A DNA stretch of 62,772 bases from Chloroflexota bacterium (lineage in GTDB: Bacteria; Chloroflexota; Anaerolineae; Anaerolineales; Anaerolineaceae), in the NCBI GenBank assembly GCA_021789855.1, contig JAJYIW010000001.1:1-62772 (forward strand). The letters are read 5' to 3'. Each line of letters opens with the position of its first letter. Position 1 is the stretch's first letter. Made by a program: the position numbers and the translations under genes. Below, piece after piece: positions 2,517 to 51,000 of the stretch. Under the pieces are notes generated by a model. It was not told the origin of the DNA. It was given only the letters and a program-made list of their open reading frames with translations, and did not search any database.

Positions 2517-2689
2517 GCCAAATTCATTTGGGGAAATTTACCTAAAGATAAATTATAAACGATGATTAGGCTGATAGGTTATCGAATATTTCTAATCACT
2601 GTTTGATATAATGGGTATTGGTATCCAGGTCGTTTAAATTTATCCAATTGCTTTTACCAATCTCATAAGGAGATCCCCAGGATTATATT

Positions 2690-3790: not shown

Positions 3791-3808
3791 TAAAAACCAA
3801 AGTTAAGC

Positions 3809-4963: not shown

Positions 4964-5167
4964 GTATTGTTCAAGAGGTAACTGATGCTATGGGTTTCAG
5001 GCGTAAACAATAACAGGTATATGTAATTGGATCATCAATTCGATTCTATAGTAATTGCTAACAAAATCAATTAACAAAATTGAAAACTCTTATCCGAAAG
5101 TATCCCCCCATCTTCTTGTTATACGTTTGATATATACTTATTTCCATAAATTTAACCACTAATTGCA

Positions 5168-6682: not shown

Positions 6683-6866
6683 AATACATACGGTTATTTC
6701 TTTTGATGCAATTGAATGGACTTGAGATAGCGTTGTATTGTATCACGAAAGAAATGACATTTTAAAATATGCGGCCTGCTGGTCCTATCTTATACACAGG
6801 ATGATCATGACCTTATGGTATTATTGACGGGTATGTTTTATCTTAGGAAACATTCCACTTAGCTTC

Positions 6867-7979: not shown

Positions 7980-9139
7980 TGGCCATCCCGTATAATGCTC
8001 CCCCATATCTAGAGATGAAAAAAGTATTGCTGGTGGCCAATACCGACTGGTATCTCTATAATTTCCGCTTGAGCTTTGCTCAATATTTGCAGGGCAAAGG
8101 TCTGTCGATCGGGCTGGTCTCTCCCCCCGGAAAGTATGCTCAAGAACTGGCCAGCGCAGGCTTTCACTGGATCCCATGGACCGTCGACCGGCGTTCGATC
8201 GCGGTTTGGGCAGAGTTTTTCGCATGGCTTAAGCTCGTCGCAATCTATCGCAGGGAAAAACCCGACCTGGTCCACCATTTCACGGTGAAGCCGGTGCTGT
8301 ACGGCTCCATCGCCACATCCTTGCTCCATGTTCCCGGGACGATCAATTCGATCACAGGCCTGGGGTATCTATTCCTCCAGAACAGCAAGACCGCCAGGTT
8401 TCTGCGAATGATGACAAAAATGGCTTACCGGCGCATCTTTTCTCGCCAGGGCCTGGCCGTAATCTTCGAAAATGAGAGCGATCGCAGCTTTTTCCTGAAC
8501 GAAGCGCTCGTCTCAGCGGAGAAGAGTTTTTTAATCCAGGGAGTTGGCGTCGATACCGACTATTTCCTGCCCACCCCTGAGCCTGATGGCCAGCCCGCGG
8601 TGGTGCTGCCGGCCCGGCTGTTATGGGATAAAGGGGTAGGTGTCCTGGTGGAAGCAGCCCGGTTGATCCGCCAGCGGTGTGACGCTCGCATCGCCCTGGT
8701 GGGGGAACCCGACCCTGGCAACCCGGTCTCCATTGACCCGGAGATCATTCAGCGCTGGGTACAAGAAGGATCGGTGGAATGGTGGGGTTGGAAGAGCGAC
8801 ATGCGCCAGGTTTATCAAGACAGTACGATTGTCACCTTACCCTCTATGGGCGAGGGCCTGCCTACGGCGTTGATTGAAGCTTGCGCCAGCGGCCGGCCGA
8901 TTGTGACCACCGACGTACCCGGCTGCCGCGACGTGGTGATAGATGGCGTCAATGGGATTCTTGTTCGACCTAATGACCCTGAAGCATTAGCCCAGGGGAT
9001 CATCACGCTACTGGAAAACCCAGATTTACGCACAAAGATGGGAAAAATGGGGCGGGAAATCGCCTTGAAGCGTTTTGGGAATGCCACCATTTTCGAACAA
9101 AACTGGCAGGTTTACGCAAAGCATCTCAAGCTTCAATAA
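7979..9139 (+). CDS. GT4-family glycosyltransferase
   Basis: 386 aa. 'KKVLLVANTDWYLYNFR' and 'EGLPTALIEACASGRPIVTTDVPGCRDVV'. The start overlaps the upstream stop (TAATG). An alternative start is ATG 8015. Confidence 0.85.
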   Translation: MAIPYNAPPYLEMKKVLLVANTDWYLYNFRLSFAQYLQGKGLSIGLVSPPGKYAQELASAGFHWIPWTVDRRSIAVWAEFFAWLKLVAIYRREKPDLVHHFTVKPVLYGSIATSLLHVPGTINSITGLGYLFLQNSKTARFLRMMTKMAYRRIFSRQGLAVIFENESDRSFFLNEALVSAEKSFLIQGVGVDTDYFLPTPEPDGQPAVVLPARLLWDKGVGVLVEAARLIRQRCDARIALVGEPDPGNPVSIDPEIIQRWVQEGSVEWWGWKSDMRQVYQDSTIVTLPSMGEGLPTALIEACASGRPIVTTDVPGCRDVVIDGVNGILVRPNDPEALAQGIITLLENPDLRTKMGKMGREIALKRFGNATIFEQNWQVYAKHLKLQ

Positions 9140-24595: not shown

Positions 24596-27040
24596 ATGCG
24601 CTTCGGATATTTTGACGATGAAAACCGCGAATATGTCATCACCCGGCCGGACACTCCCCTCCCCTGGATTAATTACCTGGGGTGTGAAGCCTACTTTGGC
24701 ATCATTTCCAACACCGCCGGCGGTTACTCATTTTACAAAGATGCTCGCCTGCGCCGGCTGACACGCTACCGTTACAATGACGTCCCCCTGGACTCCAATG
24801 GTCGCTATCTTTACCTCCGCGATCGCGACTCAGCCGCCTACTGGTCTCCCACCTGGCAGCCCACTCGCCAGCCGCTGGATCACTATACCTGCCGGCACGG
24901 ACTCGGCTATACGACCATCGACTCAACTAAAAATGGGATTGCAGCAAGAATCCGTTATTTCGTCCCTATGGGGCAAAACCTCGAAATCTGGCAGGTTCAA
25001 CTGACCAACCTTCGCCAATCCACAGCCAAACTATCCCTCTTTTCAAGTATCGAATTTTGCCTTTGGGATGCCCAGGACGATACCACCAATTTCCAGCGCA
25101 ATTTCAGCACCGGCGAGGTGGAAGTCGAAGATGGCGTTATTTACCACAAGACAGAATACCGGGAACGGCGCAACCACTTTGCCTACTTTGCCTGTTCCGA
25201 TCCCGTGATTGGCTATGATACCCAGCGAGAATCCTTCTTGGGCGCTTATGGCAGTTGGGAGCGACCGGGCGTGGTTGAAAAGGGCCAATCACAAAATTCA
25301 ATCGCCCATGGCTGGGCGCCAATTGGATCGCACCACGTGCAAATAGACCTCCAGCCGGGTGAAACACACCAGGTGATCTTCCTGTTGGGCTACCATGAAA
25401 ACCCCCAGGATGCTAAGTTTGACCCGCCGAATACCACAGTCATCAATAAAAAACAGGTTAAGCCGGTGATAGCCCATTTCCTGAAACCTGACACCGTCGA
25501 GCAGGCCTTCCAGGGGCTGAAAAAATATTGGCAGGGCCTTTTGAATGTGATGCAGGCTGAGACCCCCGACGAGCATACCAACCGCATGGTTAATATCTGG
25601 AATGCTTACCAGTGCATGGTCACCTTCAACATGTCCCGTTCAGCCTCCTATTATGAATCGGGCATTGGGCGCGGCATGGGTTTTCGCGACTCAAACCAGG
25701 ACTTGCTGGGGTTTGTCCACATGGTGCCAGAACGCGCCCGGGAACGCATTCTGGACACCGCCGCGACACAACTGGAAAATGGCGGAGCCTACCACCAGTA
25801 CCAGCCGTTAACCAAGCGGGGGAACAACGACGTGGGCAGTAACTTTAACGATGACCCGCTCTGGCTGATCCTGGCAGTCACCACTTACCTCAAGGAAACC
25901 GGCGATTGGAGCATCCTGGATGCACCGGCCGAATACGATAACCAGCCGGGAACAGCCACACCGCTTTATGAACATTTGCAGCGCTCTCTGCGCTACACCA
26001 TGGACCGGTTGGGGCCGCACAATCTGCCATTGATCGGGCGGGCCGATTGGAATGATTGCCTGAACCTCAACTGTTTCTCGGACACGCCGGGGCAATCCTT
26101 CCAGACCACAACGAACAAAGATGGCAAAGTGGCCGAGTCCGTGTTCATCGCCGGGCTCTATATCCTTGCCGCCAAAGAAATGGCAGCTTTAGCCAGTCAC
26201 CTATCTAGAAACGAGGAAGCCAAAAGCTATCTTGCCAATGCCGCTCAGATGGAAACCACTTTGCTGGCGCATGGCTGGGATGGAAAGTGGTTCCGCCGCG
26301 CATACGATGATTTTGGACAGCTCGTAGGATCCGCCGCGTGCGCTGAAGGGCAAATCTTCATTGAGCCCCAGGGCATCGCCATCATGGCGGGCGTCGGGTT
26401 ACAGGATGGCAAAGCCGAGCTAGCCCTGGATTCCGTCAGGGAACGCCTGGCTACCCCCCATGGGATTATTCTGCAACAGCCTGCCTTCTCGCATTATTAC
26501 CTGAATTTAGGCGAAATATCCTCCTATCCACCTGGTTACAAGGAAAACGCCGGGATCTTCTGCCACACCAACCCCTGGATCATGATCGCCGAAACCATCG
26601 TTGGGCGGGGCGACGCCGCTTACGATTACTACCTGCGTATCAATCCATCTGCTCGTGAATCAATCAGCGAAATTCACCGCTGCGAACCCTACGTGTACGC
26701 GCAGATGATCGCCGGAAAAGATGCTCCCAGTTTCGGGGAAGCCAAAAATTCCTGGCTTAGCGGCACCGCCGCCTGGAATTACATTGCCATCACCCAATGG
26801 ATCCTGGGCATCCGTCCCAGCCTGGATGGGCTGGAGATCGCCCCGGTCATTCCTGCCGCCTGGACGGGGTTTAAGGCCACCCGCATCTTCCGGGGGATCA
26901 CCTATCATATCACCGTCGAAAGAAAAGGACCTGGCAATGCCCTGGCCTTGTGGGTCAACGGCCAGCCAGCCAAAAGCCATGTCGTCCCGCTCCCAACCGA
27001 TGGAAAGAAGGAAGTCCAAGTTCTGATCCATTTATCATAA
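24596..27040 (+). CDS. GH94 glycoside phosphorylase (cellobiose phosphorylase-like)
   Basis: '[29 protein letters not shown]', 'GFRDSNQD', '[12 protein letters not shown]'. 815 aa from ATG 24596. The track ORF start at 24443 overlaps the kinase gene. Confidence 0.9.
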
Positions 27041-27060
27041 ATCGTAACAGGAGGGCACAG

Positions 27061-29475
27061 ATGTCAGCCTACGGTTACTTTGACGATCGCCGGCGCGAGT
27101 ATATCATCACCAATCCCCAAACGCCGGTGACATGGATCAATTACATCGGCACCCTGGCCTTCGGTGGTTTCGTCGATGCGACCGGTGGTGCCTTAATCTG
27201 CAAAGGCGATCCAGCGCTCAATCGCATCACCAAATATATCTCCCAGCTTCCCGCTTCGGACTTCAAAGGTGAAACGCTCTACCTCCGCATCAAGCGTGAC
27301 AAAGGTTACCAGGTGTTCTCCCCATTCTTTGTTCCCTGCCTGGTGCCTTATGATGCTTATGAATGTGCGGTTGGGCTGGGATACTCGCGGATTCGCTCAG
27401 TGGTTTTTGGGATTGAAACCGAAATCACCATTTTCGTCCCGCCCGGCGAGGCGGCAGAAATCCGCGATATCCACGTGACCAACCTGTCCGGCGAGCCGGT
27501 CGAAGTCGATGCGATCCCGGTGGTGGAATACACCCATTTTGACGCCCTCAAGCAATTAACCAATGCCGACTGGGTACCCCAGACCATGCAGAGTGATGCT
27601 TTCCGTGAAGCCGGTGGATTGACCACCCTGGCTCAGTACGCCTTCATGAATAAGGCTACGCGAGTCAACTTTTTTACATCCAACCTGCCTGCAGCCTCAT
27701 TTGAAACCGACCGGCGTCATTTCCTGGGCCACCAGGGTTATGGAACCTGGGCTAACCCGGCCAGCCTCCAGGCGGATGAATTATCCAATCGTGAAGCCAG
27801 GAGGGGCGACAACATCGGCGCCCTGCTGCACCACCTGGGGGTGTTAAAAAGCGGTGAGACCCGCCGGCTGATTACCCAGCTTCGCCAGGAGGCCAGCTGG
27901 GAGCAGGCGCTGCCAGCCCTACAGCGTTATCGCCAGGTCGAAACGGTGGACCAGGCGCGGCTGGATCTCGAGCACTTTTGGGATAACTACCTGGCCCGGC
28001 AACAGGTAGAGACGCCCGATGCAGCCTTAAATTCAATGCTGAACATCCACAACCCCCACCAATGCTACATCACCTTCAACTGGTCGCGCTACCTCTCTTT
28101 ATACCAGCTTGGCTATGGCGCCCGCGGCATCGGCATGCGCGACAGCTCGCAAGATGTGATGGGAGTCCTGCCATCTGCGCCAGGCCAGGCGAAGGAGCTA
28201 CTGCGTAAACTGCTCCAGGTCCAAAAACGAGATGGTTCGGGAATGCACCAATTTAACCCGTTAACGATGATCGGCAGCGAAGGCGACTCCCTGGAAAGGG
28301 AAGATCGTCCCCACTATTACTCCGACGATCACCTGTGGATCGTCCTGGCGGTCACTGCTTATCTCAAGGAGACCGGCGATTTTGGTTTCCTCGATGAGGT
28401 GATTCCCTATTACGATAAAGATCGCCATGAGCAGCCTATCGAGGCCGGCTCTGTTTTAACGCACCTCGATCGCGCCATTGAATTTACCCGCCAGGATACA
28501 GGCCAGCATGGCCTGCCCTTTCTGGGGTTTGCCGATTGGAACGACACGATGAACCTCCCCAAGGGGGCCGAATCGCTTTTCACTGCCAGCCTGTACGGCG
28601 CCGCCTTGAAAGAGCTGATCGACCTGGCCAGTTTCCGCCAGGATACTACACGCCGGGCCAAATTCCAGGCCTATTATGAACAAATGCGAGAAGCCGTCAA
28701 CACCAACGGCTGGGATGGCGAATGGTACATCAGTTATTTCGACCAAGCGGGGTCCCCAATGGGCTCCAAACAAAACGCCGCCGGGCAGATCTATGCCTAT
28801 GGCCAGGCCTGGCCCGTCATCTCCGGCTTTGCTTCTCCCGATCAGGCCAGGCGAGCCCTGGAGTCGGTTTTCCAAAAACTCAACACGCGCAACGGGATCA
28901 AGCTCAGCGCACCCGGTTTCAACGGCTTCGACCCGGCCAAAGGCGGCATCACCACCTATCCGCCTGGAGCTAAGGAGAATGGCGGGATTTTCCTCCATGT
29001 CAACCCCTGGATCATCATCGCTGAGACCCGGCTGGGAAATGGCGACCGGGCCTACCAATACTACACTCAAATTAACCCCGCCATGAAAAATGAGAAAATA
29101 GACGAGTATGAGTGTGAGCCTTACGTCTATCCACAAAACATCCTGGGAAACGAACATCCCCAGTTTGGCCTGGCGCGCAATAGCTGGTTATCCGGCACGG
29201 CATCCTGGGCTTACCAGGCCGGCACCCGGTATATCCTGGGCATCCAACCTGATTACCAGGGGCTGAAAATTGAGCCTTGCATCCCTTCCGCCTGGGATGA
29301 ATATCATGTGACCCGCATCTATCGCGGCGCGACCTATACCATCGAGGTCAAAAACCCCCACCATCTCAACGGGGGTGTAGCCCGCATGCGGATCAATGGC
29401 AACGTCATCCAGGGAAATAGCATCCCGCCCCACCAACCGGGCGAGCAGGTGTCTGTCGAAGTGATTTTAGGGTAA
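27061..29475 (+). CDS. GH94 glycoside phosphorylase paralog (cellobiose/cellodextrin/chitobiose phosphorylase family)
   Basis: 'MSAYGYFDDRRREYIITNPQTPVTWINYIG', 'GMRDSSQD', 'GFADWNDTMNL'. AGGAGG lies before ATG 27061. 804 aa. Confidence 0.85.
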   Translation: MSAYGYFDDRRREYIITNPQTPVTWINYIGTLAFGGFVDATGGALICKGDPALNRITKYISQLPASDFKGETLYLRIKRDKGYQVFSPFFVPCLVPYDAYECAVGLGYSRIRSVVFGIETEITIFVPPGEAAEIRDIHVTNLSGEPVEVDAIPVVEYTHFDALKQLTNADWVPQTMQSDAFREAGGLTTLAQYAFMNKATRVNFFTSNLPAASFETDRRHFLGHQGYGTWANPASLQADELSNREARRGDNIGALLHHLGVLKSGETRRLITQLRQEASWEQALPALQRYRQVETVDQARLDLEHFWDNYLARQQVETPDAALNSMLNIHNPHQCYITFNWSRYLSLYQLGYGARGIGMRDSSQDVMGVLPSAPGQAKELLRKLLQVQKRDGSGMHQFNPLTMIGSEGDSLEREDRPHYYSDDHLWIVLAVTAYLKETGDFGFLDEVIPYYDKDRHEQPIEAGSVLTHLDRAIEFTRQDTGQHGLPFLGFADWNDTMNLPKGAESLFTASLYGAALKELIDLASFRQDTTRRAKFQAYYEQMREAVNTNGWDGEWYISYFDQAGSPMGSKQNAAGQIYAYGQAWPVISGFASPDQARRALESVFQKLNTRNGIKLSAPGFNGFDPAKGGITTYPPGAKENGGIFLHVNPWIIIAETRLGNGDRAYQYYTQINPAMKNEKIDEYECEPYVYPQNILGNEHPQFGLARNSWLSGTASWAYQAGTRYILGIQPDYQGLKIEPCIPSAWDEYHVTRIYRGATYTIEVKNPHHLNGGVARMRINGNVIQGNSIPPHQPGEQVSVEVILG

Positions 29476-31764
29476 CGGCTCGGACGGCACAGCCGGAGGG
29501 AAAAACAACGGCAGGGCTTTCGAGGCGGGAATCCGCCAGGGAGCACACGAATAGCCGGCACTGGCGGTAATCCACTCGCGGATATTCGTTTCACGAATGC
29601 CCAGCGGCTGGAGAATCGCGCTGGCTGCCCGGATCAACAGCACTTCATACCGCTGGATGTCCAAGGCTTTTCTATTCGGGGCTGCCGGCAAATCCCACGC
29701 CCACACGCCGGGATCGCCCAGCATATAGAGAAAGCGCACACGTTGGCCCGGCCGGGTATTCTTTCCAATCCGTTCAAGCTGAGCAGCCGCTCGCGCGGCC
29801 GGCGACAGCGTGCGGTATTCGGCCAATGCACGGCTCACCTTTTGAGACACCAGCAATTGTTCGAGCGGAATTTCCCCCGTGTGGAGCCGGCGCCAGGCGC
29901 GGCGGAAGGTTACCGCCACGGCTTCCAGTTTTAACGGCAGCTCATCCACCGTGAGCGCCTCCGATAACACGCCCAGGAGAGTCTCCTGGGTATCGGCTAT
30001 AAACGGACAGGTATCCCCCCGGCGCAGCTCGATGCCGCGCACCTTGGTCGAGCCATCCTGGAAAACTCCAAAATAACGGTTCGCCACCGGGACGCGCTCA
30101 TCCAGGCGTGAGGGCAGGAAAGCCACCCACCGGTAAATCCCATCCAGGGAAATGGGAATGCCGGTGCGCTGGATAATTTCGTCCAGCAGAGGCCGGTAAT
30201 CCTCTACCCGGGTCGCCCCCGGCTTGTGAACAAATAAACTGTCCACGTATAAATGCAGCACAGTAAACCCCATGTCCTCAGCGGCCTCTTTCGCGCGCAG
30301 CAAGACCTCGCGGCCATAAGCCGTGACCGCCTGGTGCGATTCAATCCGGCCAAAGCGGGCATTTTTAAACCCCAGGTAGCCAAAACACACCACCAACAAC
30401 CACTTCAAGGCCGTCACCCGCGCTTTATACACTTTATAACGACAATCGCGCGCGTCCAGCTTCAACAGCCATTCCTTCAGCATATACCGTTTCTTAAGTA
30501 AAGGGGCCAGCGTCTCAGGGACAAAGCCACGCTTACTCTGGTCTACGGCAATGCCAAGCGCCGGGATGGTGACTCCCTCCCCTTCAATCGCGCCCACCGT
30601 CTCCGGCGACAGGTTGAAGTGTTCCATGATTTGGGGATACATCGAAAAAAAGTCGATCGCCCCCACGTCGCGGTGCAGGCCGGTCACCGGTTGGTACACC
30701 AGGCCGCCCTGGTCTGCATTAATTAATTCTGCCGCCGACTTGAAACTTTCGGCTTGCTGTTTTTGATAAGGCACCAGAATGCCCTTCTGCAAAGCCATGA
30801 TCATCTGCATGGCCGTAATGCCTGAGCCGGGAGAATTCCTGGCAATCGTTTGGACCGGCAGCCCGGTCACCCGCGCCTGTTCCAACACGCCTTCCAGGCC
30901 ATAATCGCCAAACATCATTGCGTTACAGGCATCCACGTGCCAGCGGCCGAACAATTGAACCTGCCGGCCGCGATAAACGATTTGCCCGTATGTGAAGAAG
31001 GATTTCTCTTTGCGCTGCAGCACCTCGCACTTTGGATCGCGGTTAGGGTTAAAAGCGATATGGTGCTTTTCGGACAGCTCGAGGAGCCAGGGCAAAAGCC
31101 AGGTATCGCCCCAGTGAGTCAGGATCAGGTCTGGATCATATCCCTGCAGCACCGCATTCAGGCCGATCAACACGGCGCGCGCATTACCGAGAGGCAAGCG
31201 GCTCTTAGCCCGGCCAGCATGCAGGGTAAGGTAAGCCGGGCGGCCATGGGCTGGATCGCAGTCAGGCTCAATGGCCAACACTCTAATCGGGGCCGGCTCA
31301 GGATCAAGATCCCACGGTGTGTCCAGCACCTCCAACTGCTGCAGCCGGTTTGCCTCGTTGGCCTGGAGGTGGCAGCGCGCCAGGGGAAAAGTGTGGTACC
31401 AGGCCGAAAAACGGAGTGGGAAAGCGATATCCGCATCATAATAATCGAGCTGTGGGAATTGCCGCGCCAGGTTGCGAAACAAGCGCGGCTGGTCCGCCGC
31501 CCCTGGCACTGTGATCTGCATGACCTCCAACGGCCCCTTGAACAGGTCCTGCCGGGTCGTGCGCGCCAGCCCGACTCGGAGGGGCTGTTGTTTCAAATAT
31601 TGCCACGCGCTGCGCAGCTCTGCATGAGAGCCAGCCGCGTAAAAAACCACCGGGAAGGGCTGGTAAAAACGGCGTCGCTCGCCGTCATCTCCCAGCAGCC
31701 AGACTACCGCTCCCTGTTCGGAATCCGGATAAACATCCAACAGCCAACCCGAATAATCAATCAT
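29467..31764 (-). CDS. polB: Family B DNA polymerase (archaeal-type layout) with degenerate 3'-5' exonuclease motifs
   Basis: Motif A is 'AIDFFSMYPQIMEHFNLSPET', motif B 'KWLLVVCFGYLGFKNARFG', motif C 'VLHLYVDSLFV', and 'NRYFGV...VRGIELRRGD'. The exonuclease positions read 'RVLAIEPD' (vs FDIE) and 'DPDLILTHWGDTWLLPWL' (vs NGDxFDxPYL). I chose start ATG 31764 ('MIDYSGWLLDVY'), which overlaps the upstream stop (ATGATTGA). Confidence 0.85.
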   Translation of the reverse strand: MIDYSGWLLDVYPDSEQGAVVWLLGDDGERRRFYQPFPVVFYAAGSHAELRSAWQYLKQQPLRVGLARTTRQDLFKGPLEVMQITVPGAADQPRLFRNLARQFPQLDYYDADIAFPLRFSAWYHTFPLARCHLQANEANRLQQLEVLDTPWDLDPEPAPIRVLAIEPDCDPAHGRPAYLTLHAGRAKSRLPLGNARAVLIGLNAVLQGYDPDLILTHWGDTWLLPWLLELSEKHHIAFNPNRDPKCEVLQRKEKSFFTYGQIVYRGRQVQLFGRWHVDACNAMMFGDYGLEGVLEQARVTGLPVQTIARNSPGSGITAMQMIMALQKGILVPYQKQQAESFKSAAELINADQGGLVYQPVTGLHRDVGAIDFFSMYPQIMEHFNLSPETVGAIEGEGVTIPALGIAVDQSKRGFVPETLAPLLKKRYMLKEWLLKLDARDCRYKVYKARVTALKWLLVVCFGYLGFKNARFGRIESHQAVTAYGREVLLRAKEAAEDMGFTVLHLYVDSLFVHKPGATRVEDYRPLLDEIIQRTGIPISLDGIYRWVAFLPSRLDERVPVANRYFGVFQDGSTKVRGIELRRGDTCPFIADTQETLLGVLSEALTVDELPLKLEAVAVTFRRAWRRLHTGEIPLEQLLVSQKVSRALAEYRTLSPAARAAAQLERIGKNTRPGQRVRFLYMLGDPGVWAWDLPAAPNRKALDIQRYEVLLIRAASAILQPLGIRETNIREWITASAGYSCAPWRIPASKALPLFFPPAVPSEPLP

Positions 31765-32020
31765 CCCGGACTCCAAGCCGCTCGACCAGGGTTCGCAGGT
31801 GCAGCACTTCTTTATGTTCCTCCAGCAGCATTGCCAGCAAAAATATTTCCATGGGTAGGGCATGCGACGCATACGCTGCCGCAGCGAGATGTTTTTGAGC
31901 CGAGACAAACAGGTCATCCAGGATCACCTGATCGCTGCGCCGCAATGCCCGGCGGAAGCGGGCCAGGGCTCCTTGTTCCTGGTAAAAAAACTGTGTAATC
32001 GATGGCAGTGTACGTCCCAT
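31757..32020 (-). CDS. Small (87 aa) helical protein of unknown function, translationally coupled to the polymerase
   Basis: ATG 32020 lies 20 nt after the upstream stop. Its stop overlaps the polymerase ATG by 8 nt. No recognisable motif. Confidence 0.5.
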   Translation of the reverse strand: MGRTLPSITQFFYQEQGALARFRRALRRSDQVILDDLFVSAQKHLAAAAYASHALPMEIFLLAMLLEEHKEVLHLRTLVERLGVRDD

Positions 32021-32040
32021 GGGCACCTTGAAAAAACCAA

Positions 32041-32619
32041 CTACCACCAGGGCTGCGGTGATGGCGGGGCAAGGACCCCCTCTTGCTCCCACACTTCATC
32101 AGCAGCAGCCCGTAACAGTTCCACTAAACAGGCGCGATCCGCATGGCGGGGTCCCGCCGGGCGGAGGCTGATCACCACCGGCGCCTGGTGACTCAGGCGC
32201 CGGATCGCTGCCAGGCACAATCCCAGGAGCCGCTGGCTTTCTTCCAGCCGGATCGCTTCATCATAGAAGTTGGAAAGCAAGTCAAGCAAACAGGTAGGGG
32301 TCGCATCCAGCGGCGTTTCCTCCAAGAGGGTCACCATCTGGTAGCAGGTGAACGCGCGGGAAAGGTGAATCCGTCGGAGCGCTTCACCCAAAGACAGGCT
32401 GTCGTATCCTGGCCCTCTCTCAGCTTGTGCCATCTGGCGGCCGATGGAACGCGCCACGGTATACGCATTAAACTGGTTGCCACCATCCATGACGCGGACG
32501 GAACAGGCGTCCCCAGGCTTCTTAAGCGACAGCCGGGCGATCAGCTCCAGCATGGCACCGGCATTGGCACCGACGACTAACCACAAACGGTTTGTAAGCG
32601 GTTTGGATAGGGTGTTCAT
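32041..32619 (-). CDS. RecA/RadB/KaiC-like core protein lacking the Walker A Lys/Thr (ImuA-like in concept)
   Basis: 'RLWLVVGANAGAMLELIARL' sits at the P-loop position (GxxxxGKT becomes GANAGAML). Other elements: 'VRVMDGGNQFNAY', 'RIHLSRAFTCYQMVTLLEE', the Walker-B-like 'TCLLDLLSNFYDEA', and 'QAPVVISL'. The fold assignment comes from motif order only. Confidence 0.45.
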   Translation of the reverse strand: MNTLSKPLTNRLWLVVGANAGAMLELIARLSLKKPGDACSVRVMDGGNQFNAYTVARSIGRQMAQAERGPGYDSLSLGEALRRIHLSRAFTCYQMVTLLEETPLDATPTCLLDLLSNFYDEAIRLEESQRLLGLCLAAIRRLSHQAPVVISLRPAGPRHADRACLVELLRAAADEVWEQEGVLAPPSPQPWW

Positions 32620-32625
32620 ACTACA

Positions 32626-32654
32626 AGATTAACCACCGCCGGTGGAAAATACAA
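32626..32654 (-). promoter_or_regulatory. Putative promoter giving a leaderless mRNA, with a perfect 6-1-6 palindrome in the spacer
   Basis: Read on the minus strand: TTGTAT (32654-32649), a 17-nt spacer containing CCACCG-G-CGGTGG (32645-32633), TAATCT (32631-32626), 6 nt, then ATG at 32619. Confidence 0.3.
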
Positions 32655-32664
32655 TCACAGATGG

Positions 32665-32699
32665 GGGGATAAAAGGGGAGAAACAGGGGTTACCCCCTG
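32665..32699 (-). terminator. Possible intrinsic terminator after the acyl-AMP ligase gene
   Basis: Minus-strand stem CAGGGG-GTAA-CCCCTG (32699-32684) followed by TTTCTCCCCTTTTATCC. The stem is short and the tail is C-interrupted. Confidence 0.35.
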
Positions 32700-32708
32700 G
32701 GGGGATGC

Positions 32709-34400
32709 CTATTCAGGCAACGTGTTGGCGGCCATAACCGCCAGGAATTTTTCCCGGTTAGCCGGGCGTGCAATTTTCCCACTGCTGGTTTTGATAATCC
32801 ACCGGGGTCCCACCACCAGCACCTGCCGCAGAGCCACAGCCGAGCTGCGCGTCACTCGCTGGCGTATAGCATCGGCAATCTGTTCGCGCGCTTCTTCGTC
32901 ATCGGTATCCACCTCTGCCACCATGGCCACATCTTCCGTCCCTGTTTCCGGGTTAAAAACGCCAAAAGCGACAACCCGGCCTGGATGCACACCGGGGACC
33001 TGGTTGGCGATGGCCTCCAGGTCCTGAGGATAGATATTTTTTCCCCCCACGATGATCAGGTCCTTTTTCCGCCCAACCACATACACTTCTCCCCCGGCCA
33101 TATATCCCAGATCACCCGTCAGGTACCAGCCATCCATAAAAGCCTTGTGTGTCAAATCGTCTCGCCGGTAATACCCGGTGAGCATACAATGGCTGCGGAT
33201 GGCAAGCTCGCCAACCTGGCGGTCTGCGAGCGCCCGGCCATGATCATCGACGACCTTAACCCGGGTTTCTGCAATGGGCTTCCCGGCAGATAACATCTTC
33301 AACGTCTCCCCCACTTGATCGGAAGGCCGGGCAACCCGCTCGGTGACAAAACTCTTCTGGTCGATTTCATCCACGGTTACAACCCCATCAAAACCGCCCT
33401 GGGACACCGCAAAGACGTTTTCGGCCATGGCATAACACGTCTTTAAAGCCTCAGAACGCAGGCCGAAAGGCTGGAAGCGATCGATGAAAAGCTGGTGGCT
33501 CTCCCAGCGCATCGGTTCAGAGCAATTGATCACCCCGCGCAGACTGGACAGGTCGACGCCGGCCAGGTCGCGAGCGCGAATCTTCTGGCTACAGAAGTTG
33601 TAGGCAAAATTTGGGAGCCAGGTTAAAGTCCCCTGGTACCTGGATATGGCCTGCATCAAGCGATAAGGCGCCCTGACCCAATCAAATGGCGACATCATCA
33701 CCAGGGGGATGCCCCATAGAACAGGCATGATGAAGCCGGCGATCAGCCCCATGTCATGGTAAAGCGGCAACCAGCTAACCACCACATCATCCGGCTGCAG
33801 GTGGATGGCCTGGCTATAGCTCTCAAGCTGGTTGAGCACCGCCTGGTGAGAAAGGGCTACCCCTTTTTGTAGGCCCGTCGTGCCCGAGGAATGCTGCAGC
33901 AAGACAATGTCTTCCGGCCGGCGGGTAAATCCGGACAAGCCCGGCAGATCGATGCCGGTTTTAGGCTGAATAGCACTGGTCACTAAAACTGCCCTCACCG
34001 AATCGCCGGCATGCAGGGTCTCCATCACCACCGGGTAGAATTCGGGGTAGGTGACCAGGGCAGCCGGTTGGGTGATCTTCAGCAAGGCAGCCATATCTTC
34101 CTGGTACCGCTCAGGGGATAATTTCTCGGTCAAGAAGGGCATGATCGACGGTATGGCCCCGTGCAGGATCGCTCCCCAAAAGCTATAGATCAAATCCACG
34201 CCATGCTGCAGCACCAGGATCACCACATCTCCGGGCTGGATCCCGGCCTCGGCCAGGGCCTGAGAATAACTCGCGGCTCCCCGGATAAACTCCGCGTAAG
34301 ATAGGGCCTGGTCTGGCTGCCCGGCGGAAAGCAGACGAAAGATGGTTTTATCGGGATGCCTGGCCAGATTCTGATCCAGGAGCTGGCATAACGTTGGCAT
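32709..34400 (-). CDS. Acyl-AMP ligase (ANL superfamily, FAAL/DltA-like)
   Basis: 563 aa. 'HSSGTTGLQKGVALSH' adenylation P-loop, 'YLTGDLGY', 'GRKKDLIIVGGKNIYPQDLE', 'SSGKIAR'. Confidence 0.85.
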   Translation of the reverse strand: MPTLCQLLDQNLARHPDKTIFRLLSAGQPDQALSYAEFIRGAASYSQALAEAGIQPGDVVILVLQHGVDLIYSFWGAILHGAIPSIMPFLTEKLSPERYQEDMAALLKITQPAALVTYPEFYPVVMETLHAGDSVRAVLVTSAIQPKTGIDLPGLSGFTRRPEDIVLLQHSSGTTGLQKGVALSHQAVLNQLESYSQAIHLQPDDVVVSWLPLYHDMGLIAGFIMPVLWGIPLVMMSPFDWVRAPYRLMQAISRYQGTLTWLPNFAYNFCSQKIRARDLAGVDLSSLRGVINCSEPMRWESHQLFIDRFQPFGLRSEALKTCYAMAENVFAVSQGGFDGVVTVDEIDQKSFVTERVARPSDQVGETLKMLSAGKPIAETRVKVVDDHGRALADRQVGELAIRSHCMLTGYYRRDDLTHKAFMDGWYLTGDLGYMAGGEVYVVGRKKDLIIVGGKNIYPQDLEAIANQVPGVHPGRVVAFGVFNPETGTEDVAMVAEVDTDDEEAREQIADAIRQRVTRSSAVALRQVLVVGPRWIIKTSSGKIARPANREKFLAVMAANTLPE

Positions 34401-34406
34401 GGTCGA

Positions 34407-34655
34407 TCAGGATTGCCTTTCACGAATCAAAGCGGCTAACTGCGACAGGGAATCAAACGTATCGGCATTGAGCTCTGTATCGTCCAGATGAACACCAAAA
34501 TGTTCCTCGATGTACATCGCCAGATCGACCAGGTGGAAAGAGTCGATGATACCGCTCGAGATAAGGGCATCATTCTCTCCAACCCTTTTCTTGGGTTGTT
34601 TCAAGATATCGTTCGCGATGTAGGCTGATAACTCATTAATAATATCGTCTGTCAT
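34407..34655 (-). CDS. Acyl/peptidyl carrier protein (DltC-like)
   Basis: 82 aa. 'SSGIIDSFHLVDLAMYIEE' is a phosphopantetheine Ser motif. It lies 6 nt upstream of the ligase. Confidence 0.85.
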   Translation of the reverse strand: MTDDIINELSAYIANDILKQPKKRVGENDALISSGIIDSFHLVDLAMYIEEHFGVHLDDTELNADTFDSLSQLAALIRERQS

Positions 34656-34676
34656 AGGTATCCTTTAGGAAGCAAT

Positions 34677-35735
34677 TTACCGGCTATTCACGGCCTGCCA
34701 GACGGCATTTAACGCTTCGAGGGCCGTCAGGTTACGCACTGGCCAGGCCGTTAGCATCATCTTCGGGTCGTCAAAATCATTTTTCGAGTCCAGGCCTGTC
34801 AGGTGAAAATGGTCAGGGTCTTCTGGGGTCAATCCATGATAGGGCAAAGGTTGAACTGCCCGCCAAAAATTCCACAACGGAATATGGTCGTCGTACGCTA
34901 CCTGCGCGATGCTGGCGTTGATGGACTCATCCCCCTCCAGGTTATCTGCTTTGGTAGCCAGGATGGGCAGCGTTCCCTGTTGGATAGAAAAATCGACAAT
35001 CTGGCGCAGGTACTTTTCGTAGATTGACGCGGGTCGCTTAGCCCACCAGGTTTCCATGCTGATGATCACAATCGAGGGCTTGTGCAGGCGGAACTCGCAG
35101 GCCAGGGGCGTCTCATTTTTGTTACATACGGAGGGATCCGCATAAATGGGGTTCAACACAGCCGCCACGTTAAACCCGCCTTTAACTGCCAGGCTGTTTC
35201 GTGAAAAGCTTCCCTTGAACTGGTCAATGACCGGCTGAAGTGAGCTATAGGGGCCCAGGCGGTATTTTTGGGGGTCATCAAAAATGCCCAGGAAATAGTT
35301 GGTGATATTCTGGCAATCACCAACTTTAGAAAAAGCTGTGGGGTCGTTGCCCATGGCCAGCCCTTTCTGATAGATAGCCACGGCCTCCTGGCTTACAACT
35401 GGGGTGACCGGCCAGTTTTTCCAATCAGAAGGCGGCAATGCGGGCGCCGGTGAAGGCATAGGGGTGGAGGAAGTGGTTAAAACCATGACCGGTTGCTCTG
35501 CCGGGGGGGTCGCCGGTAGGCTGAGCTTACCGTCCTGGGTTGGCTGTTTCAATGGCGTGTGGATTAAGGTTGGAGTCGCCTGGCTGGCAGGCTGGCTCAC
35601 CTGATCGACCGTGGGACTGGCCTGGCCAGTCGATGGGCTGTTAATGGATACGGAAGGAGGAGCCCCACAAGCCGCTAATACCCATATCCAGGCGAGCAAG
35701 AACAACCAATAAATAAGGGCTCTCAAGGTTTTCAT
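34677..35735 (-). CDS. Lipoprotein with Pro/Thr-rich linker and an SGNH-like domain carrying GDC in place of GDS
   Basis: Lipobox 'WVLAACGAP'. 'FSKVGDCQNI' sits at block I and 'DPDHFHLTG' at block V (DxxH). ATG 35735 with AGGAG 5 nt upstream lies directly after the upstream TAA. Confidence 0.5.
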   Translation of the reverse strand: MKTLRALIYWLFLLAWIWVLAACGAPPSVSINSPSTGQASPTVDQVSQPASQATPTLIHTPLKQPTQDGKLSLPATPPAEQPVMVLTTSSTPMPSPAPALPPSDWKNWPVTPVVSQEAVAIYQKGLAMGNDPTAFSKVGDCQNITNYFLGIFDDPQKYRLGPYSSLQPVIDQFKGSFSRNSLAVKGGFNVAAVLNPIYADPSVCNKNETPLACEFRLHKPSIVIISMETWWAKRPASIYEKYLRQIVDFSIQQGTLPILATKADNLEGDESINASIAQVAYDDHIPLWNFWRAVQPLPYHGLTPEDPDHFHLTGLDSKNDFDDPKMMLTAWPVRNLTALEALNAVWQAVNSR

Positions 35736-35736
35736 T

Positions 35737-36876
35737 TTACTCCTGGGGCTTAGGCCCAACCAGGTTCATCATCATCGTCTCGACTTGACCGGCCAGGATC
35801 GTCTCTCCCTTAGGGGTGAGGTGAATAGCGCTGTTGGTGAATTCGGACGGTTGGACCAGATTCCATAAATCGAGATAATGCCAGCCCTGGCTCTGCGCGT
35901 TGGATGCGAGAATCTGGCGATAATCGTCATATGCCCAGCGAGGGTAATAGAAATTATACCGGATATTACTGTTCTGCCCATTGCTAATAAACATCGGCTC
36001 GTTGACAATGAGCACCGGAATCGCAGAGTAAAGGGAGAGGCCAGCTTTCAGCACATCCAGGGACAGGTCCTGGGTTAGCAAATGAGGGGGCTTTAGCCCT
36101 TCAAAAGTGGGATCGGCCGCGAGGTCATTCGCCCTTAACTCATAACTGGAAGGGTAATACTGGTCAATACCCGTGGCCGCCCAGGGAATGCCATAGAATT
36201 GTAGTCTGAAAAGATCTGCCAGGTCACGCCGGCGACCTATGATGGTATTCTGCCAGAAGGAAAGATCCACCAATTGGGGATCCTGCGGGTTCAGGTTAAG
36301 ATGGTCCTCCCGAATCAAACGACGCACCGCCTGAGGGTTATGCTGCAATAAGGGAGAGCTCAGCTGCCGGGACACCGGGAAAGATTCAAGGGTTACCATC
36401 CACACGATCATATCGGGGTGATATGGCTTGACCAGGGTCAGGAAAAGCAGGTCTTTGGTGAGGGAAAGCGTCGGATACCCCAGGTTAAACGCCCGGATGG
36501 TCCGCCCGTCTGCAGTTTTCAAGCTGGCCGCATTGATCTGGCCCACCAGGGTCTGCGCTGGCGTAAGCAACGTGCCCCACACAGACGAGTCGCCCACCAC
36601 CACCACCCGATAATCCCGGCTCGATGGCGCGATCCGGTCGATCGCACTGATCTCGTGGGAAGACAGCATAGCCTCCAGCGAATAAAGGCTAAAGTTATAG
36701 GCCTGGTCCGGCGTCTCGCCAAACGGTAACCGCGGCCTTCCTGGAAAAAAGACATTATAGGCTGAGATGCGAGCCAAAGCCGGCACCGGTTGGACAACGG
36801 CAAAGAGCAAGTTCGCCAGGATGAACAGCAAGGACGCCTTTATCAGCACGTTGCGGATGAAATGGGTATCGGCCAT
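35737..36876 (-). CDS. Membrane-anchored SGNH-fold protein (DltD/AlgJ-like O-acyltransferase partner)
   Basis: N-terminal TM helix. 'YRVVVVGDSSVWG' (GDS block I). 'NSAIHLTPKGE' lies near the C-terminus. It sits between the MBOAT gene and the lipoprotein gene. Confidence 0.6.
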   Translation of the reverse strand: MADTHFIRNVLIKASLLFILANLLFAVVQPVPALARISAYNVFFPGRPRLPFGETPDQAYNFSLYSLEAMLSSHEISAIDRIAPSSRDYRVVVVGDSSVWGTLLTPAQTLVGQINAASLKTADGRTIRAFNLGYPTLSLTKDLLFLTLVKPYHPDMIVWMVTLESFPVSRQLSSPLLQHNPQAVRRLIREDHLNLNPQDPQLVDLSFWQNTIIGRRRDLADLFRLQFYGIPWAATGIDQYYPSSYELRANDLAADPTFEGLKPPHLLTQDLSLDVLKAGLSLYSAIPVLIVNEPMFISNGQNSNIRYNFYYPRWAYDDYRQILASNAQSQGWHYLDLWNLVQPSEFTNSAIHLTPKGETILAGQVETMMMNLVGPKPQE

Positions 36877-36879
36877 GGC

Positions 36880-38331
36880 TTAGAGTCCTAGCAATTTATG
36901 AAACACTGCCAGGGATTGAGCTGGTTCTGGCAAGGCAAACCAGACCCAGCCCAGGGTCACATAATTGAAGGTGATAAAGGTGCTCAAGAAGGCCAGGCTT
37001 CGTTCGAGCCAGTGCGGGGGCGTCCAATCCCCCAGGTGCGTCCGGTAGAAATCCAACCAGCGGTTATGCAAGAATAGGCCTATTGCATGCCAGGCGCCCC
37101 AAAAAAGAAAATTCCAGGTGACGCCATGCCACAGGCCAATCAGAACCATCGTACAAAATTGTCCTAACAGGATCACGGCCGTGGCTGGCAACGGTTTTTT
37201 CATCGAACGCAGAGCGCGCACCAGCGGGTTAAAAAAATAGGCCCTGAACCACAGCGCCAGGGTGATATGCCAGCTATTCCAAAAAGCGGTCATGTTTTGC
37301 TTCAGGTAGGGGCGATCGAAGTTTTCGGGCAATTTGATCCCCACCCATCGCCCCAGGCCGATCGCAATATCCGTATAGCCCGAGAAGTCAAAATAAATCC
37401 GGAAAGCATACGCATATACCATCACCCACAGCCAGAGGGATGAGGTCACCTGAGAAGCGCTGGCCGGGCTGAGAGCCATCAGGGCCAGCGAATCAGCCAG
37501 CACAAATTTCTTAAAAAGACCCATCGTGACCCGCTCGCCCCCATCCATGAAAACCTCTGATAGGCTACGCCGTGGGCTGGAAAGATCTTTGGAGAACCGC
37601 TCAACCCGGTCGATAGGCCCTGCGGGTAAAGACGGGAAAAAGATGACATAAGTGACGTAATTGCGGAGGGACAAAAGCGGCAACCGGCCGGCCTGGCGGT
37701 CTCTCAAGGTATGGATGAGCCGAAAGGCTATGTACGAATAACCCAACCAGCTGATATCGCTGACGCGGGCCAGCGTGGTTTCCTGGCCTGCCAGGGCGCG
37801 AAACCAGGCGCTGGCTGCCTGGGTCAGGTGATTGGTCTTTAGAATGATGAATATACCCAGGAGGATCGCAATACCGGCGAATGAAAAAAGCTTTGTGGAG
37901 GGCGACCATTTCACCAGGGCAACGACGGACACCAGGATCAACGCCGCAGCCAGGCCAATCTGGGTCAGTTCAGGTGGAGTCGTCGGGATGATGCAGCAGG
38001 CAGGCCCCAGGTACCGGGTCAGCCCGATGCTCACCATGACCAGCAGGATGGCTAACCCGGCTAATCCGTCACCCATAAAGGTATGCTGAAAGCTTGCAGG
38101 GTTTGATTGGATTGGATGAGGCGGGCGGGTGATGGCCCAGCTCAAGAGGACCAGCCCCAGGGTCGCTGTAGGCAGCCAAAAATCCAGGTGGCGAATAGGG
38201 GAAGCCGGCTGGAGCCAATAAACTGCCAGAATACTGGTAAGAAATAATAGCCAACCCTGCCAGCTTTTATTTCGCAATAAACCTATGGCCAACGCTATTG
38301 CGCTGAGGGCCAGGATATTCGTAATTGTCAT
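36880..38331 (-). CDS. MBOAT-family membrane O-acyltransferase (DltB/AlgI-like)
   Basis: 483 aa, polytopic. 'FWNSWHITLALWFRAYFFNPL' and 'GLWHGVTWNFLFWGAWH' carry the conserved MBOAT His motifs. Confidence 0.9.
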   Translation of the reverse strand: MTITNILALSAIALAIGLLRNKSWQGWLLFLTSILAVYWLQPASPIRHLDFWLPTATLGLVLLSWAITRPPHPIQSNPASFQHTFMGDGLAGLAILLVMVSIGLTRYLGPACCIIPTTPPELTQIGLAAALILVSVVALVKWSPSTKLFSFAGIAILLGIFIILKTNHLTQAASAWFRALAGQETTLARVSDISWLGYSYIAFRLIHTLRDRQAGRLPLLSLRNYVTYVIFFPSLPAGPIDRVERFSKDLSSPRRSLSEVFMDGGERVTMGLFKKFVLADSLALMALSPASASQVTSSLWLWVMVYAYAFRIYFDFSGYTDIAIGLGRWVGIKLPENFDRPYLKQNMTAFWNSWHITLALWFRAYFFNPLVRALRSMKKPLPATAVILLGQFCTMVLIGLWHGVTWNFLFWGAWHAIGLFLHNRWLDFYRTHLGDWTPPHWLERSLAFLSTFITFNYVTLGWVWFALPEPAQSLAVFHKLLGL

Positions 38332-50060: not shown

Positions 50061-50909
50061 TCAATCCCCTGATTCAGGCACCCAATACGACATCCAGGCG
50101 TTATCCAGGCGGGTGCAAAATTCTGAACCTGCCATGAGTTGGCCTGCCTCGAGGTCGGGATAAATAGCCAGTTGCCGGGCAACCTCAGGTGAAGCGATGC
50201 GGCCAAACAGGCGGGTTCGAAACACATCGACCCAATATGGTAAGGATGTTGCCTGTCCGGCCAGCGCACTGGCAACCGGCCAAACGCCAACCTGCGCGCC
50301 ATTCTCAAGGAGCCAATGAAAAGTCATTTGATCGCTGGTCTCCAGGGTTTCGACCTGGGAAAGGTCTTCAATGATTAACAGAACCATCGGCCCATTCCGC
50401 CGGCCGGTAAACCGATCTTCGACCAGGCCTGCCAGGGAGTTAATGAGAGAGCTCAGAGAATCATGGTTCCAGGGATAAATACCCAGGCTGTGCTTCACCC
50501 CCTGGTATGGATCAAAAAGATCGGCCCACTCTTCGGGATGAGCGGTCACCACCCCAATCTGGATTTCGCGAGGCGATGCCAGGCGTAAGGCCGATTCCAC
50601 CATCACCTTAAGCTGGCGAGTCTTTCCACACCTGGCATCCCCTGTCACCAAGACTGGCCCTGAGGCCGGTTGGGCCAGGTCCAACAAAAACGGTAAGCCA
50701 TCTTCACATGCCCCTATCAGGATCGATTGGTAAGGCACAGGTTTTATAGAATAAAGCACCTGGCCTACCGTGGGGAGGCGCATGAGGGGCGTCATGTTCC
50801 AGGGCTCAGCCTCCCCTGACGAAGCCTTCGTGTTGGCTTTTTGTTTTAATTCGGGTAGTAAATGCTGGTAAGCTTCGAGCGCCAGCGCCATCAAACTCGT
50901 ATCGGCCAT
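50061..50909 (-). CDS. Single-domain FtsK/SpoIIIE/HerA-like P-loop ATPase
   Basis: Walker A 'VLVTGDARCGKT', Walker B 'MVLLIIEDLSQ', and the downstream 'RTRLFGRIASPEVARQL', which resembles the FtsK-domain C-terminal motif. There is no TM or DNA-binding gamma domain. Confidence 0.5.
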   Translation of the reverse strand: MADTSLMALALEAYQHLLPELKQKANTKASSGEAEPWNMTPLMRLPTVGQVLYSIKPVPYQSILIGACEDGLPFLLDLAQPASGPVLVTGDARCGKTRQLKVMVESALRLASPREIQIGVVTAHPEEWADLFDPYQGVKHSLGIYPWNHDSLSSLINSLAGLVEDRFTGRRNGPMVLLIIEDLSQVETLETSDQMTFHWLLENGAQVGVWPVASALAGQATSLPYWVDVFRTRLFGRIASPEVARQLAIYPDLEAGQLMAGSEFCTRLDNAWMSYWVPESGD

Positions 50910-51000
50910 GGTTTCACCTGCCTTTTTACAGATATAGAACTAATGTTCTATATCATTATAGACGTTTAAAACCGCCTGTCAAGGGGTTAACCAGGCCAAT

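Follow-up and report, generated by a model that had tools for sequence, protein, structure and literature searches.

A three-gene family B polymerase cassette in an Anaerolineaceae bacterium is very probably a copy of the known PolB2 mutasome operon

Results

We analysed a stretch of 62,772 nucleotides from a Chloroflexota bacterium of the family Anaerolineaceae (NCBI GenBank assembly GCA_021789855.1, contig JAJYIW010000001.1, positions 1 to 62,772; hereafter the window), and describe here a cassette of three minus-strand genes that encodes a family B DNA polymerase and two smaller proteins. The cassette is very probably a chromosomal copy of the bacterial PolB2 mutasome operon, iRadA-PPB2-PolB2, and its genes are named accordingly. 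iRadA (192 amino acids) lies at 32041-32619, PPB2 (87 amino acids) at 31757-32020, and PolB2 (765 amino acids) at 29467-31764, all on the minus strand. The three open reading frames (ORFs) are intact and co-oriented, in the order iRadA-PPB2-PolB2, just where an earlier reading of the DNA without database searches (the sequence-only reading) had placed three tightly linked genes. A gap of 20 nucleotides separates iRadA from PPB2 and contains a Shine-Dalgarno sequence, AAGGTG, at 32024-32029, while the ATG of PolB2 overlaps the stop codon of PPB2 by 8 nucleotides in ATGATTGA. From this layout we infer that PPB2 has its own Shine-Dalgarno sequence and that translation of PolB2 is coupled to that of PPB2 through the overlap. 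Longer mechanical versions of two of the ORFs also exist (816 amino acids for the polymerase and 111 for the 87-amino-acid gene). The shorter starts are favoured by the N-termini of thousands of homologues, which read MxExTGWLLD for the polymerase, MGRTLPS for the 87-amino-acid protein, and MNxLxxP for the 192-amino-acid protein.

The 765-amino-acid protein matches the Pfam family DNA_pol_B (PF00136) with an expectation value (E) of 1.2e-29. In the PDB it is closest to 5mdn, an enzyme of Pyrobaculum calidifontis (E 6e-48), and next to PolB of Thermococcales. We take 5mdn to be a PolB3-type enzyme; PolB3 is the outgroup in the analysis of PMC11791011. E. coli Pol II is only distantly similar (E 2.5e-8, polymerase domain only), and in NCBIfam the window polymerase falls under the curated cut-offs of all PolB models, with the Pol II models far below. 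The PolB2 of Brevefilum fermentans, WP_087862516, is 48% identical over 391 amino acids with 1 gap (E 3e-136), and the haloarchaeal PolB2 WP_004516399 is 29% identical over 238 residues with 6 gap positions (E 2e-33); the window protein is collinear with the latter across the region in which its ExoIII segment is deleted.

Conservation within the polymerase was evaluated in an alignment of 23 relatives with 54-78% identity to the window protein. D371 of motif A, K454 of motif B, and V507-D508 of motif C are invariant or nearly so, as are dozens of palm and finger residues. Motif C reads Y506-V507-D508 (YVD), and its first position is Tyr in 22 of the 23 relatives. These positions agree with the three polymerase motifs already recognised in the sequence-only reading.

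The exonuclease site presents a different picture. By the HMMER alignment to 5mdn, which shares the long linker before the strand, the ExoI motif FDIE stands opposite I165-E166-P167-D168 (window 'PPLRVLAFDIEV' against 'APIRVLAIEPDC'). Acidic residues are thus present in ExoI, in swapped positions and without constraint: E166 is found in 16 of the 23 relatives and is K, R, A or Q in some, and D168 alternates with N. In ExoII, the position of the catalytic Asp (Pfu D215) is taken by a Leu, L223, that does not vary among the relatives. Pairwise alignment with Pfu polymerase, whose sequence was verified as identical to PDB 3a2f, matches 273-GRWHVD of the window protein to Pfu 254-GRIHFD and 288-YGLEGVLE to Pfu 273-YTLEAVYE, and leaves Pfu residues ~281-332, including Y311 and D315 of ExoIII, without a counterpart. 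HMMER agrees on this deletion, with ~50 window residues facing ~95 residues of 5mdn. A MAFFT register with Pfu that misplaced ExoI and offered D278 as the ExoIII Asp was rejected on the strength of the pairwise match 273-GRWHVD = Pfu 254-GRIHFD. At the equivalents of Pol II D156, E158, D229, Y331, and D335, no intact exonuclease active site is present in the window polymerase. The earlier view that the exonuclease carboxylates are lost therefore holds for ExoII and ExoIII, while its ExoI register, 'LAIE', was off by two and the acids there are swapped. Judged by these residues, the window PolB2 is probably an active polymerase with a degenerate exonuclease.

The tail of PolB2 carries a candidate beta-clamp-binding motif, KALPLFF (residues 749-755; 29500-29520, minus strand). 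Similar motifs of the form (A/T)LPL(F/W/L) occur in the tails of other PolB2 proteins, where they read LPLW, LPLL, or LPLF. The C-terminus of iRadA reads SPQPWW here, whereas most of its homologues end in ..PLRLF / ..RLF or QLxLF. A motif in PolB2 together with an iRadA that ends in SPQPWW fits the published pattern, in which the clamp motif is usually found in one or the other of the two proteins. The clamp tether of this copy would probably be ALPLFF in PolB2.

An AlphaFold2 model of the 192-amino-acid protein, built with 44 homologues, reached a predicted local distance difference test (pLDDT) score of 89.5 and a predicted template modelling (pTM) score of 0.85. The top PDB matches of this model in Foldseek were the ATPase core of monomeric Pyrococcus RadA, RAD51 paralogues, and DMC1 (E 7.5e-8, probability 1.0, template modelling scores 0.57-0.65). 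The protein had been described as RecA/RadB/KaiC-like; the fold is borne out by these matches, whereas the kinship has to be revised, with RadA/Rad51 closer than RecA or ImuA. The loop between strand 1 and helix 1, the place of the Walker A site, reads GANAGAM with no GK[ST] and is unconserved in the 44 homologues, in keeping with the earlier observation that Walker A is lost. D113, at the Walker-B-like position, is kept in at least 90% of the homologues. With 192 amino acids iRadA comprises the core only and has no N-terminal helical domain. By its fold and its unconserved Walker A loop it is an inactive RadA/Rad51-core protein, nearer to the archaeal/eukaryotic branch than to RecA or ImuA.

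The 87-amino-acid protein has 4608 homologues in the protein collection, and PF26485 (DUF8156) was present in 120 of 120 among the matches listed. Neither this protein nor the 192-amino-acid protein has a named model among the Pfam and NCBIfam copies searched. PPB2 of the window begins MGRTLPSIT; among 30 aligned homologues G2, R3, and T4 show no variation and M1 is almost invariant, and the MGRT start is also present in nearly all related genomic loci. The AlphaFold2 monomer is all-helical, as had been expected, with a disordered arm at residues 1-7 and a pLDDT of 70. In the closest relative of the window cassette (L083, with an iRadA 76% identical), PPB2 and PolB2 are fused in frame (L083:1067-3328, ...LVERLGVMMSDYTGWLLDVY...), which may include a sequencing frameshift. 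This fusion supports indirectly that the two proteins would be in physical contact.

The conservation of the trio was evaluated in a linkage scan with one genome per species, which gave 80 loci (L001-L080), almost all from Anaerolineae or other Chloroflexota. PPB2 lies directly upstream of PolB2 in 72 of the 80 loci, and in 68 iRadA precedes both; the order and the strand never differ. Such a neighbourhood survey had been proposed in the sequence-only reading, and the linkage it envisaged is found. Three of the loci without the full trio are contigs cut at their upstream end. Seven loci have PolB2 alone, with no iRadA or PPB2 within ~6 kb (L007, L008, L013, L022, L025, L037, and L046); a clamp-like motif at the C-terminus, LPLW or LPLL, is present in most of these orphans. 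The neighbours of the cassette vary across Anaerolineae, in which it is vertically widespread.

We aligned the DNA upstream of iRadA from 69 loci. In the window, a predicted promoter lies at 32626-32654 on the minus strand, with the -35 element TTGTAT at 32649-32654, a spacer of 17 nucleotides, the -10 element TAATCT at 32626-32631, and 6 nucleotides to the ATG at 32619. The same arrangement, gGGGA-TTGnnn-17-TAnnnT-6-ATG/GTG, is seen in over 30 diverged loci, and TAnnnT stands 6 nucleotides ahead of an in-frame start in 54 of 68 loci. A sigma-70 consensus scan upstream of iRadA gave no promoter; it is the comparative conservation that leads us to predict that the operon has its own promoter, which the sequence-only reading had also proposed. 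The constant distance from the -10 element to the start codon suggests that the iRadA mRNA is leaderless and is transcribed from this promoter. A palindrome in the spacer, CCACCGGCGGTGG, was considered as an operator and rejected, as it is unconserved in close relatives.

The related loci differ in what accompanies this promoter. In ~20 of them, a Cheo-/Gram-positive-type LexA box (AGAAC-N4-GTTCT) lies between the -35 and -10 elements, e.g. TTGACAATAGAACATATATTCTATATAAT. Another ~30 loci, including the window, are box-less and have a conserved region that extends up to ~100 nucleotides upstream of the -35 element, with C-tract units and a palindrome of the GGGTTAACCC type. Both the LexA box and the upstream element are found in a few loci (L042, L074, L077, and L078). 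The nearest match to AGAAC-N4-GTTCT in the window, with at most one mismatch, is ~10 kb from the PolB2 promoter. A tblastn search with E. coli LexA, a probe of low sensitivity, gave no match in the 80 loci (~6 kb flanks where the contig allowed) or in the window.

The upstream element of the window lies at 32655-32706 (minus strand) and consists of four C-tract units, ATCCCCCC, TAACCCC, TCTCCCC, and TATCCCCCC, spaced ~10-15 nucleotides apart; it includes GGGGGTAACCCC, a variant of the GGGTTAACCC palindrome. Its blocks are kept in close relatives with different upstream genes and in ~30 diverged loci. The motif GGTTAACC occurs 30 times in 974 kb, and 20 of these occurrences lie within 260 nucleotides upstream of iRadA, a region that makes up 1.8% of the sequence; the other ten are inside ORFs. 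Several roles for these sequences were considered and set aside. A structured RNA was rejected, with no match in Rfam and 0 pairs from RNAalifold on 27 sequences. The hairpin CAGGGGGTAACCCCTG (32684-32699), previously taken to insulate the cassette from the upstream operon, belongs to the conserved element and is not demonstrably a terminator of that operon, as the block persists where the neighbour is divergent or different. A shared regulon marked by GGTTAACC is unsupported beyond the PolB2 operon: a second exact copy in the window abuts the -35 element of an SOS-box promoter (box at 50936-50949) and is unconserved upstream of homologues, and the others lie inside ORFs. In one related locus, a short tandem array of TAACCCC-like units (CTAACCCCTAGCACCTAACCCCTAACACCTAACCCCTAGTAACCCC; L070:9013-9056) lies ~4 kb downstream of PolB2, and it is the sole C-tract array of such kind away from the iRadA promoter in ~1 Mb.

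The SOS-box promoter itself has a perfect LexA box, AGAACATTAGTTCT, at 50936-50949, just downstream of TTGACA/TATAAT. The gene behind it (50061-50995, minus strand) encodes an FtsK/SpoIIIE/EccC-like P-loop ATPase of 282 amino acids, for which we found no Pfam match at E <= 1e-5 and only sub-threshold matches to P-loop ATPases. The arrangement of TATAAT and LexA box is kept in all 10 of the 10 metagenomic homologues with upstream DNA (29-66% identity; L087-L099), and the protein looks like a conserved part of the LexA regulon of Anaerolineae-like bacteria that is apparently still uncharacterised. Judging from this box, the organism uses LexA boxes elsewhere in the same window.

Between 22.8 and 40.9 kb, the genes that flank the cassette are ordinary metabolic genes, none of them related to DNA repair, and the guanine-plus-cytosine (GC) content of the cassette is that of its surroundings. 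The upstream operon (32709-38331, minus strand) encodes an MBOAT protein, two unknown proteins, an acyl carrier protein, and an AMP-binding enzyme, which together resemble a Dlt-like or O-acylation module. In one relative (L081), acyl carrier protein and AMP-binding genes are also near the PolB2 cassette, but two opposite-strand genes stand in between. Downstream of PolB2 are two convergent GH94 phosphorylase genes, and the 3' ends of one of them (26950-29475, plus strand) and of PolB2 (29467-31764, minus strand) overlap by 9 nucleotides (29467-29475). A terminator-like hairpin at 29424-29445 (minus strand), inside the 3' end of this GH94 gene, is the sole candidate for PolB2; it comes from a consensus scan alone, which is weak evidence. 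Farther away, positions 2000-8000 of the window have a low GC content (36-43% vs ~55%) and encode GT1 and GT4 glycosyltransferases, a PMT_2-type transferase, and two proteins without a Pfam match; this region is probably a horizontally acquired surface-polysaccharide cluster.

Discussion

That polB2 is associated with arCOG07300 and with a homologue of radA was first reported by Makarova et al. (2014), according to the account given in PMC11791011. In that work, Timinskas, Timinskas and Venclovas (2025) renamed arCOG07300 as PPB2 ('partner of PolB2'), described its MGRT arm, defined iRadA as a RadA without the N-terminal domain or the ATPase residues, and modelled with AlphaFold a heteropentameric mutasome, PolB2:iRadA:PPB2x3. 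The sole gene order reported for bacteria is iRadA-PPB2-PolB2, for which one transfer event out of archaea was put forward as the origin. Most PolB2 proteins have another residue in place of the first Asp of DxD in motif C but retain the second Asp as well as motifs A and B. A clamp-binding motif is present in a fraction of the operons, usually in either iRadA or PolB2 and rarely in both. In the modelled mutasome, PolB2 binds iRadA via a Rad51-like beta-alpha motif that adjoins a conserved D(K/R) motif, and lexA or SRAP genes are enriched near the bacterial operons, as an enrichment and not as a strict criterion (PMC11791011). The supplementary rows listed there include many operons of Chloroflexota and Anaerolineae classed as '1a (iRadA-PPB2-PolB2)', with motif C YVD or FVD and iRadA motifs such as QLVLW; the exact motif strings of the window have no match among the rows searched. 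The PolB2 of B. fermentans was modelled as part of a mutasome of this same class (PMC11791011). The group is also cited as G2/PolB2, with a predicted mutasome, in a 2026 survey of bacterial polymerases (PMC12926913).

The cassette of the window is an ordinary member of this published system, which is common in Anaerolineae and already known, and we consider it very probable that it is a chromosomal copy of the bacterial operon as described. The proposal made from the sequence alone is thus partly supported: the mechanism was right and the novelty was wrong. Its parallel to ImuA-ImuB-DnaE2 as a mutasome-like function matches what the literature proposes for the trio, which is viewed as a mutasome analogous to ImuA-ImuB-DnaE2 or Pol V (PMC11791011). 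Its claim of novelty, worded as knowing of no described system with such a composition, does not stand, as the cassette carries the tested hallmarks of iRadA-PPB2-PolB2, and a match to a characterised family is an outcome which that reading had itself named as refuting.

In the mechanism that the literature suggests for the operon, PolB2 would be active as a polymerase, would lack proofreading, and would serve translesion synthesis by extending primer ends that are mismatched or paired with a lesion, as has been shown for Sulfolobus Dpo2. Purified Sulfolobus Dpo2 is a robust, exo-minus polymerase that extends mismatched and lesion-paired termini (PMC8764526), and the introduction of PMC11791011 states that DNA damage induces all three genes in Sulfolobales and that targeted mutagenesis needs Dpo2. 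Following the literature AlphaFold model, PolB2 and iRadA would each contribute one subunit to the complex and PPB2 a trimer; one of the PPB2 subunits would place its MGRT arm in the cleft between PolB2 and iRadA, and iRadA would be held through the Rad51-like oligomerisation motif of PolB2. A short C-terminal motif, here probably ALPLFF in PolB2, would tether the complex to the beta clamp. From the comparison of upstream sequences, the operon would be transcribed from its own promoter as a leaderless mRNA, with the translation of PolB2 coupled to that of PPB2.

Several points weigh against this interpretation. The published conserved D(K/R) loop motif could not be placed with confidence in the window PolB2; its loop 235-IAFNPNRDPK-245, which contains the invariant N241 and R242, is at most a tentative equivalent. 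The clamp-like motif of PolB2 begins with Ala, not with Gln, and the usual C-terminal RLF-type clamp motif is not present in iRadA. The PPB2 monomer model is of moderate confidence, the architecture of the mutasome is itself an AlphaFold model taken from the literature, and no bacterial PolB2 protein or complex is reported as experimentally tested in the PolB2 literature cited. Finally, there is no LexA box in the window promoter, and no lexA or SRAP gene adjoins this copy.

Three other explanations were weighed against the PolB2 mutasome operon. The cassette could be a decaying or catalytically dead relic whose PolB2 serves a structural or regulatory purpose, which was the assumption about PolB2 before 2020. 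The Tyr in place of the first DxD Asp, the broken exonuclease site, and the lack of a damage-response signal at the promoter point in this direction. However, D371, K454, D508, and dozens of palm and finger residues are conserved among relatives, the three ORFs are intact, and the set is retained in 68 of 80 species; moreover, Sulfolobus Dpo2 is a robust polymerase with a comparable substitution, IID (PMC8764526; PMC11791011). A relic is therefore very unlikely. Still less probable, and in our judgement hardly credible, is a new and undescribed PolB-based mutagenesis cassette that is merely analogous to known systems. The lack of names for the 192- and 87-amino-acid proteins in the model collections, and the position of the polymerase under the NCBIfam PolB cut-offs, would agree with it. 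Against this, PMC11791011, which is cited in PMC12926913, already describes the three genes and their order, the MGRT arm, YVD in motif C, and an inactive RadA partner, and it tabulates operons from Anaerolineae. One of the examples modelled in that work is 48% identical to the window polymerase, and PPB2 homologues are already under Pfam DUF8156.

The third alternative, that the cassette belongs to a mobile element, such as a self-replicating one of the casposon or pipolin kind, or to an anti-phage defence system, for example one built on a polymerase, has an almost negligible probability. It could draw on one PADLOC match, to a 'homing endonuclease' model, on the archaeal-to-bacterial horizontal transfer of the module inferred in PMC11791011, and on our impression that two related loci (L037 and L071) have unfamiliar, possibly phage-like ORFs upstream of PolB2. 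The PADLOC match, however, is limited to the C-terminal polymerase part of a profile of 1671 positions, and for this reason it reflects polymerase homology and is not a defence signature. The vicinity of the cassette has no integrase, no Cas1, and no terminal repeat; its flanks consist of the Dlt-like operon and GH94 phosphorylases with a GC content like that of the cassette, which is vertically widespread in Anaerolineae amid varying neighbours.

As a copy of the PolB2 mutasome operon, the cassette adds little to the system: it is one more instance of an operon that has already been modelled in the literature and catalogued in thousands of sequences from Anaerolineae. It is nevertheless a clean example for experimental tests of the bacterial PolB2 mutasome, and the promoter comparison gives a concrete handle on regulation, with the box-less promoter class as the sole lead worth noting. 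It is conceivable, though we are rather doubtful, that the PolB2 operon of this lineage is outside direct LexA control and driven from its leaderless promoter, that the array of C-tracts and GGTTAACC-type elements ahead of this promoter is bound by another regulator, and that the clamp tether has moved from iRadA to PolB2. If true, Anaerolineae would have a second way to control a mutagenic polymerase, one independent of LexA.

Among known systems, E. coli Pol II shares with the window PolB2 that it is a bacterial family B enzyme, and it has a C-terminal clamp motif, QLGLF. In contrast, Pol II has an intact 3'-5' exonuclease, acts alone, and is only distantly similar, and the window enzyme is not of the Pol II type. 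E. coli Pol V (UmuD'2C-RecA) resembles the PolB2 complex as a multimeric translesion polymerase with a RecA-family subunit bound via a filament-like contact, a parallel drawn in PMC11791011, while its catalytic subunit is of the Y family and its RecA is active. ImuA-ImuB-DnaE2 likewise combines a RecA-superfamily protein, which is often inactive, with an accessory protein and an error-prone polymerase that does not proofread, and uses the beta clamp. Its polymerase, however, is of the C family, its ImuB is a dead Y-family polymerase, and its ImuA is RecA-like, whereas the window has a B-family polymerase, an 87-amino-acid helical DUF8156 protein, and a RadA/Rad51-like iRadA. The window cassette is not a member of that group, and the resemblance is an analogy without homology of the module.

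Closer are the Dpo2 systems of Sulfolobus islandicus and Saccharolobus solfataricus, whose polymerase belongs to the same clade as the window PolB2 according to the published phylogeny, is exo-minus, has the first DxD Asp replaced, and is encoded with iRadA and PPB2; the archaeal protein with which the window PolB2 was compared is the haloarchaeal PolB2 (29% identity over 238 residues). The Dpo2 systems differ in their archaeal order, PPB2-PolB2-iRadA, in their PCNA-type motifs, and in a regulation linked to Orc1/Cdc6. From the published iRadA-PPB2-PolB2 operon there is no categorical difference. The window copy stands apart in its clamp-type motif, apparently in PolB2 (ALPLFF) with an iRadA that ends in PQPWW, and in having no lexA/SRAP gene nearby and a promoter without a LexA box; it shares with the published operon the same three families, the bacterial gene order, the MGRT arm, the YVD motif, the dead exonuclease, and the Anaerolineae host.

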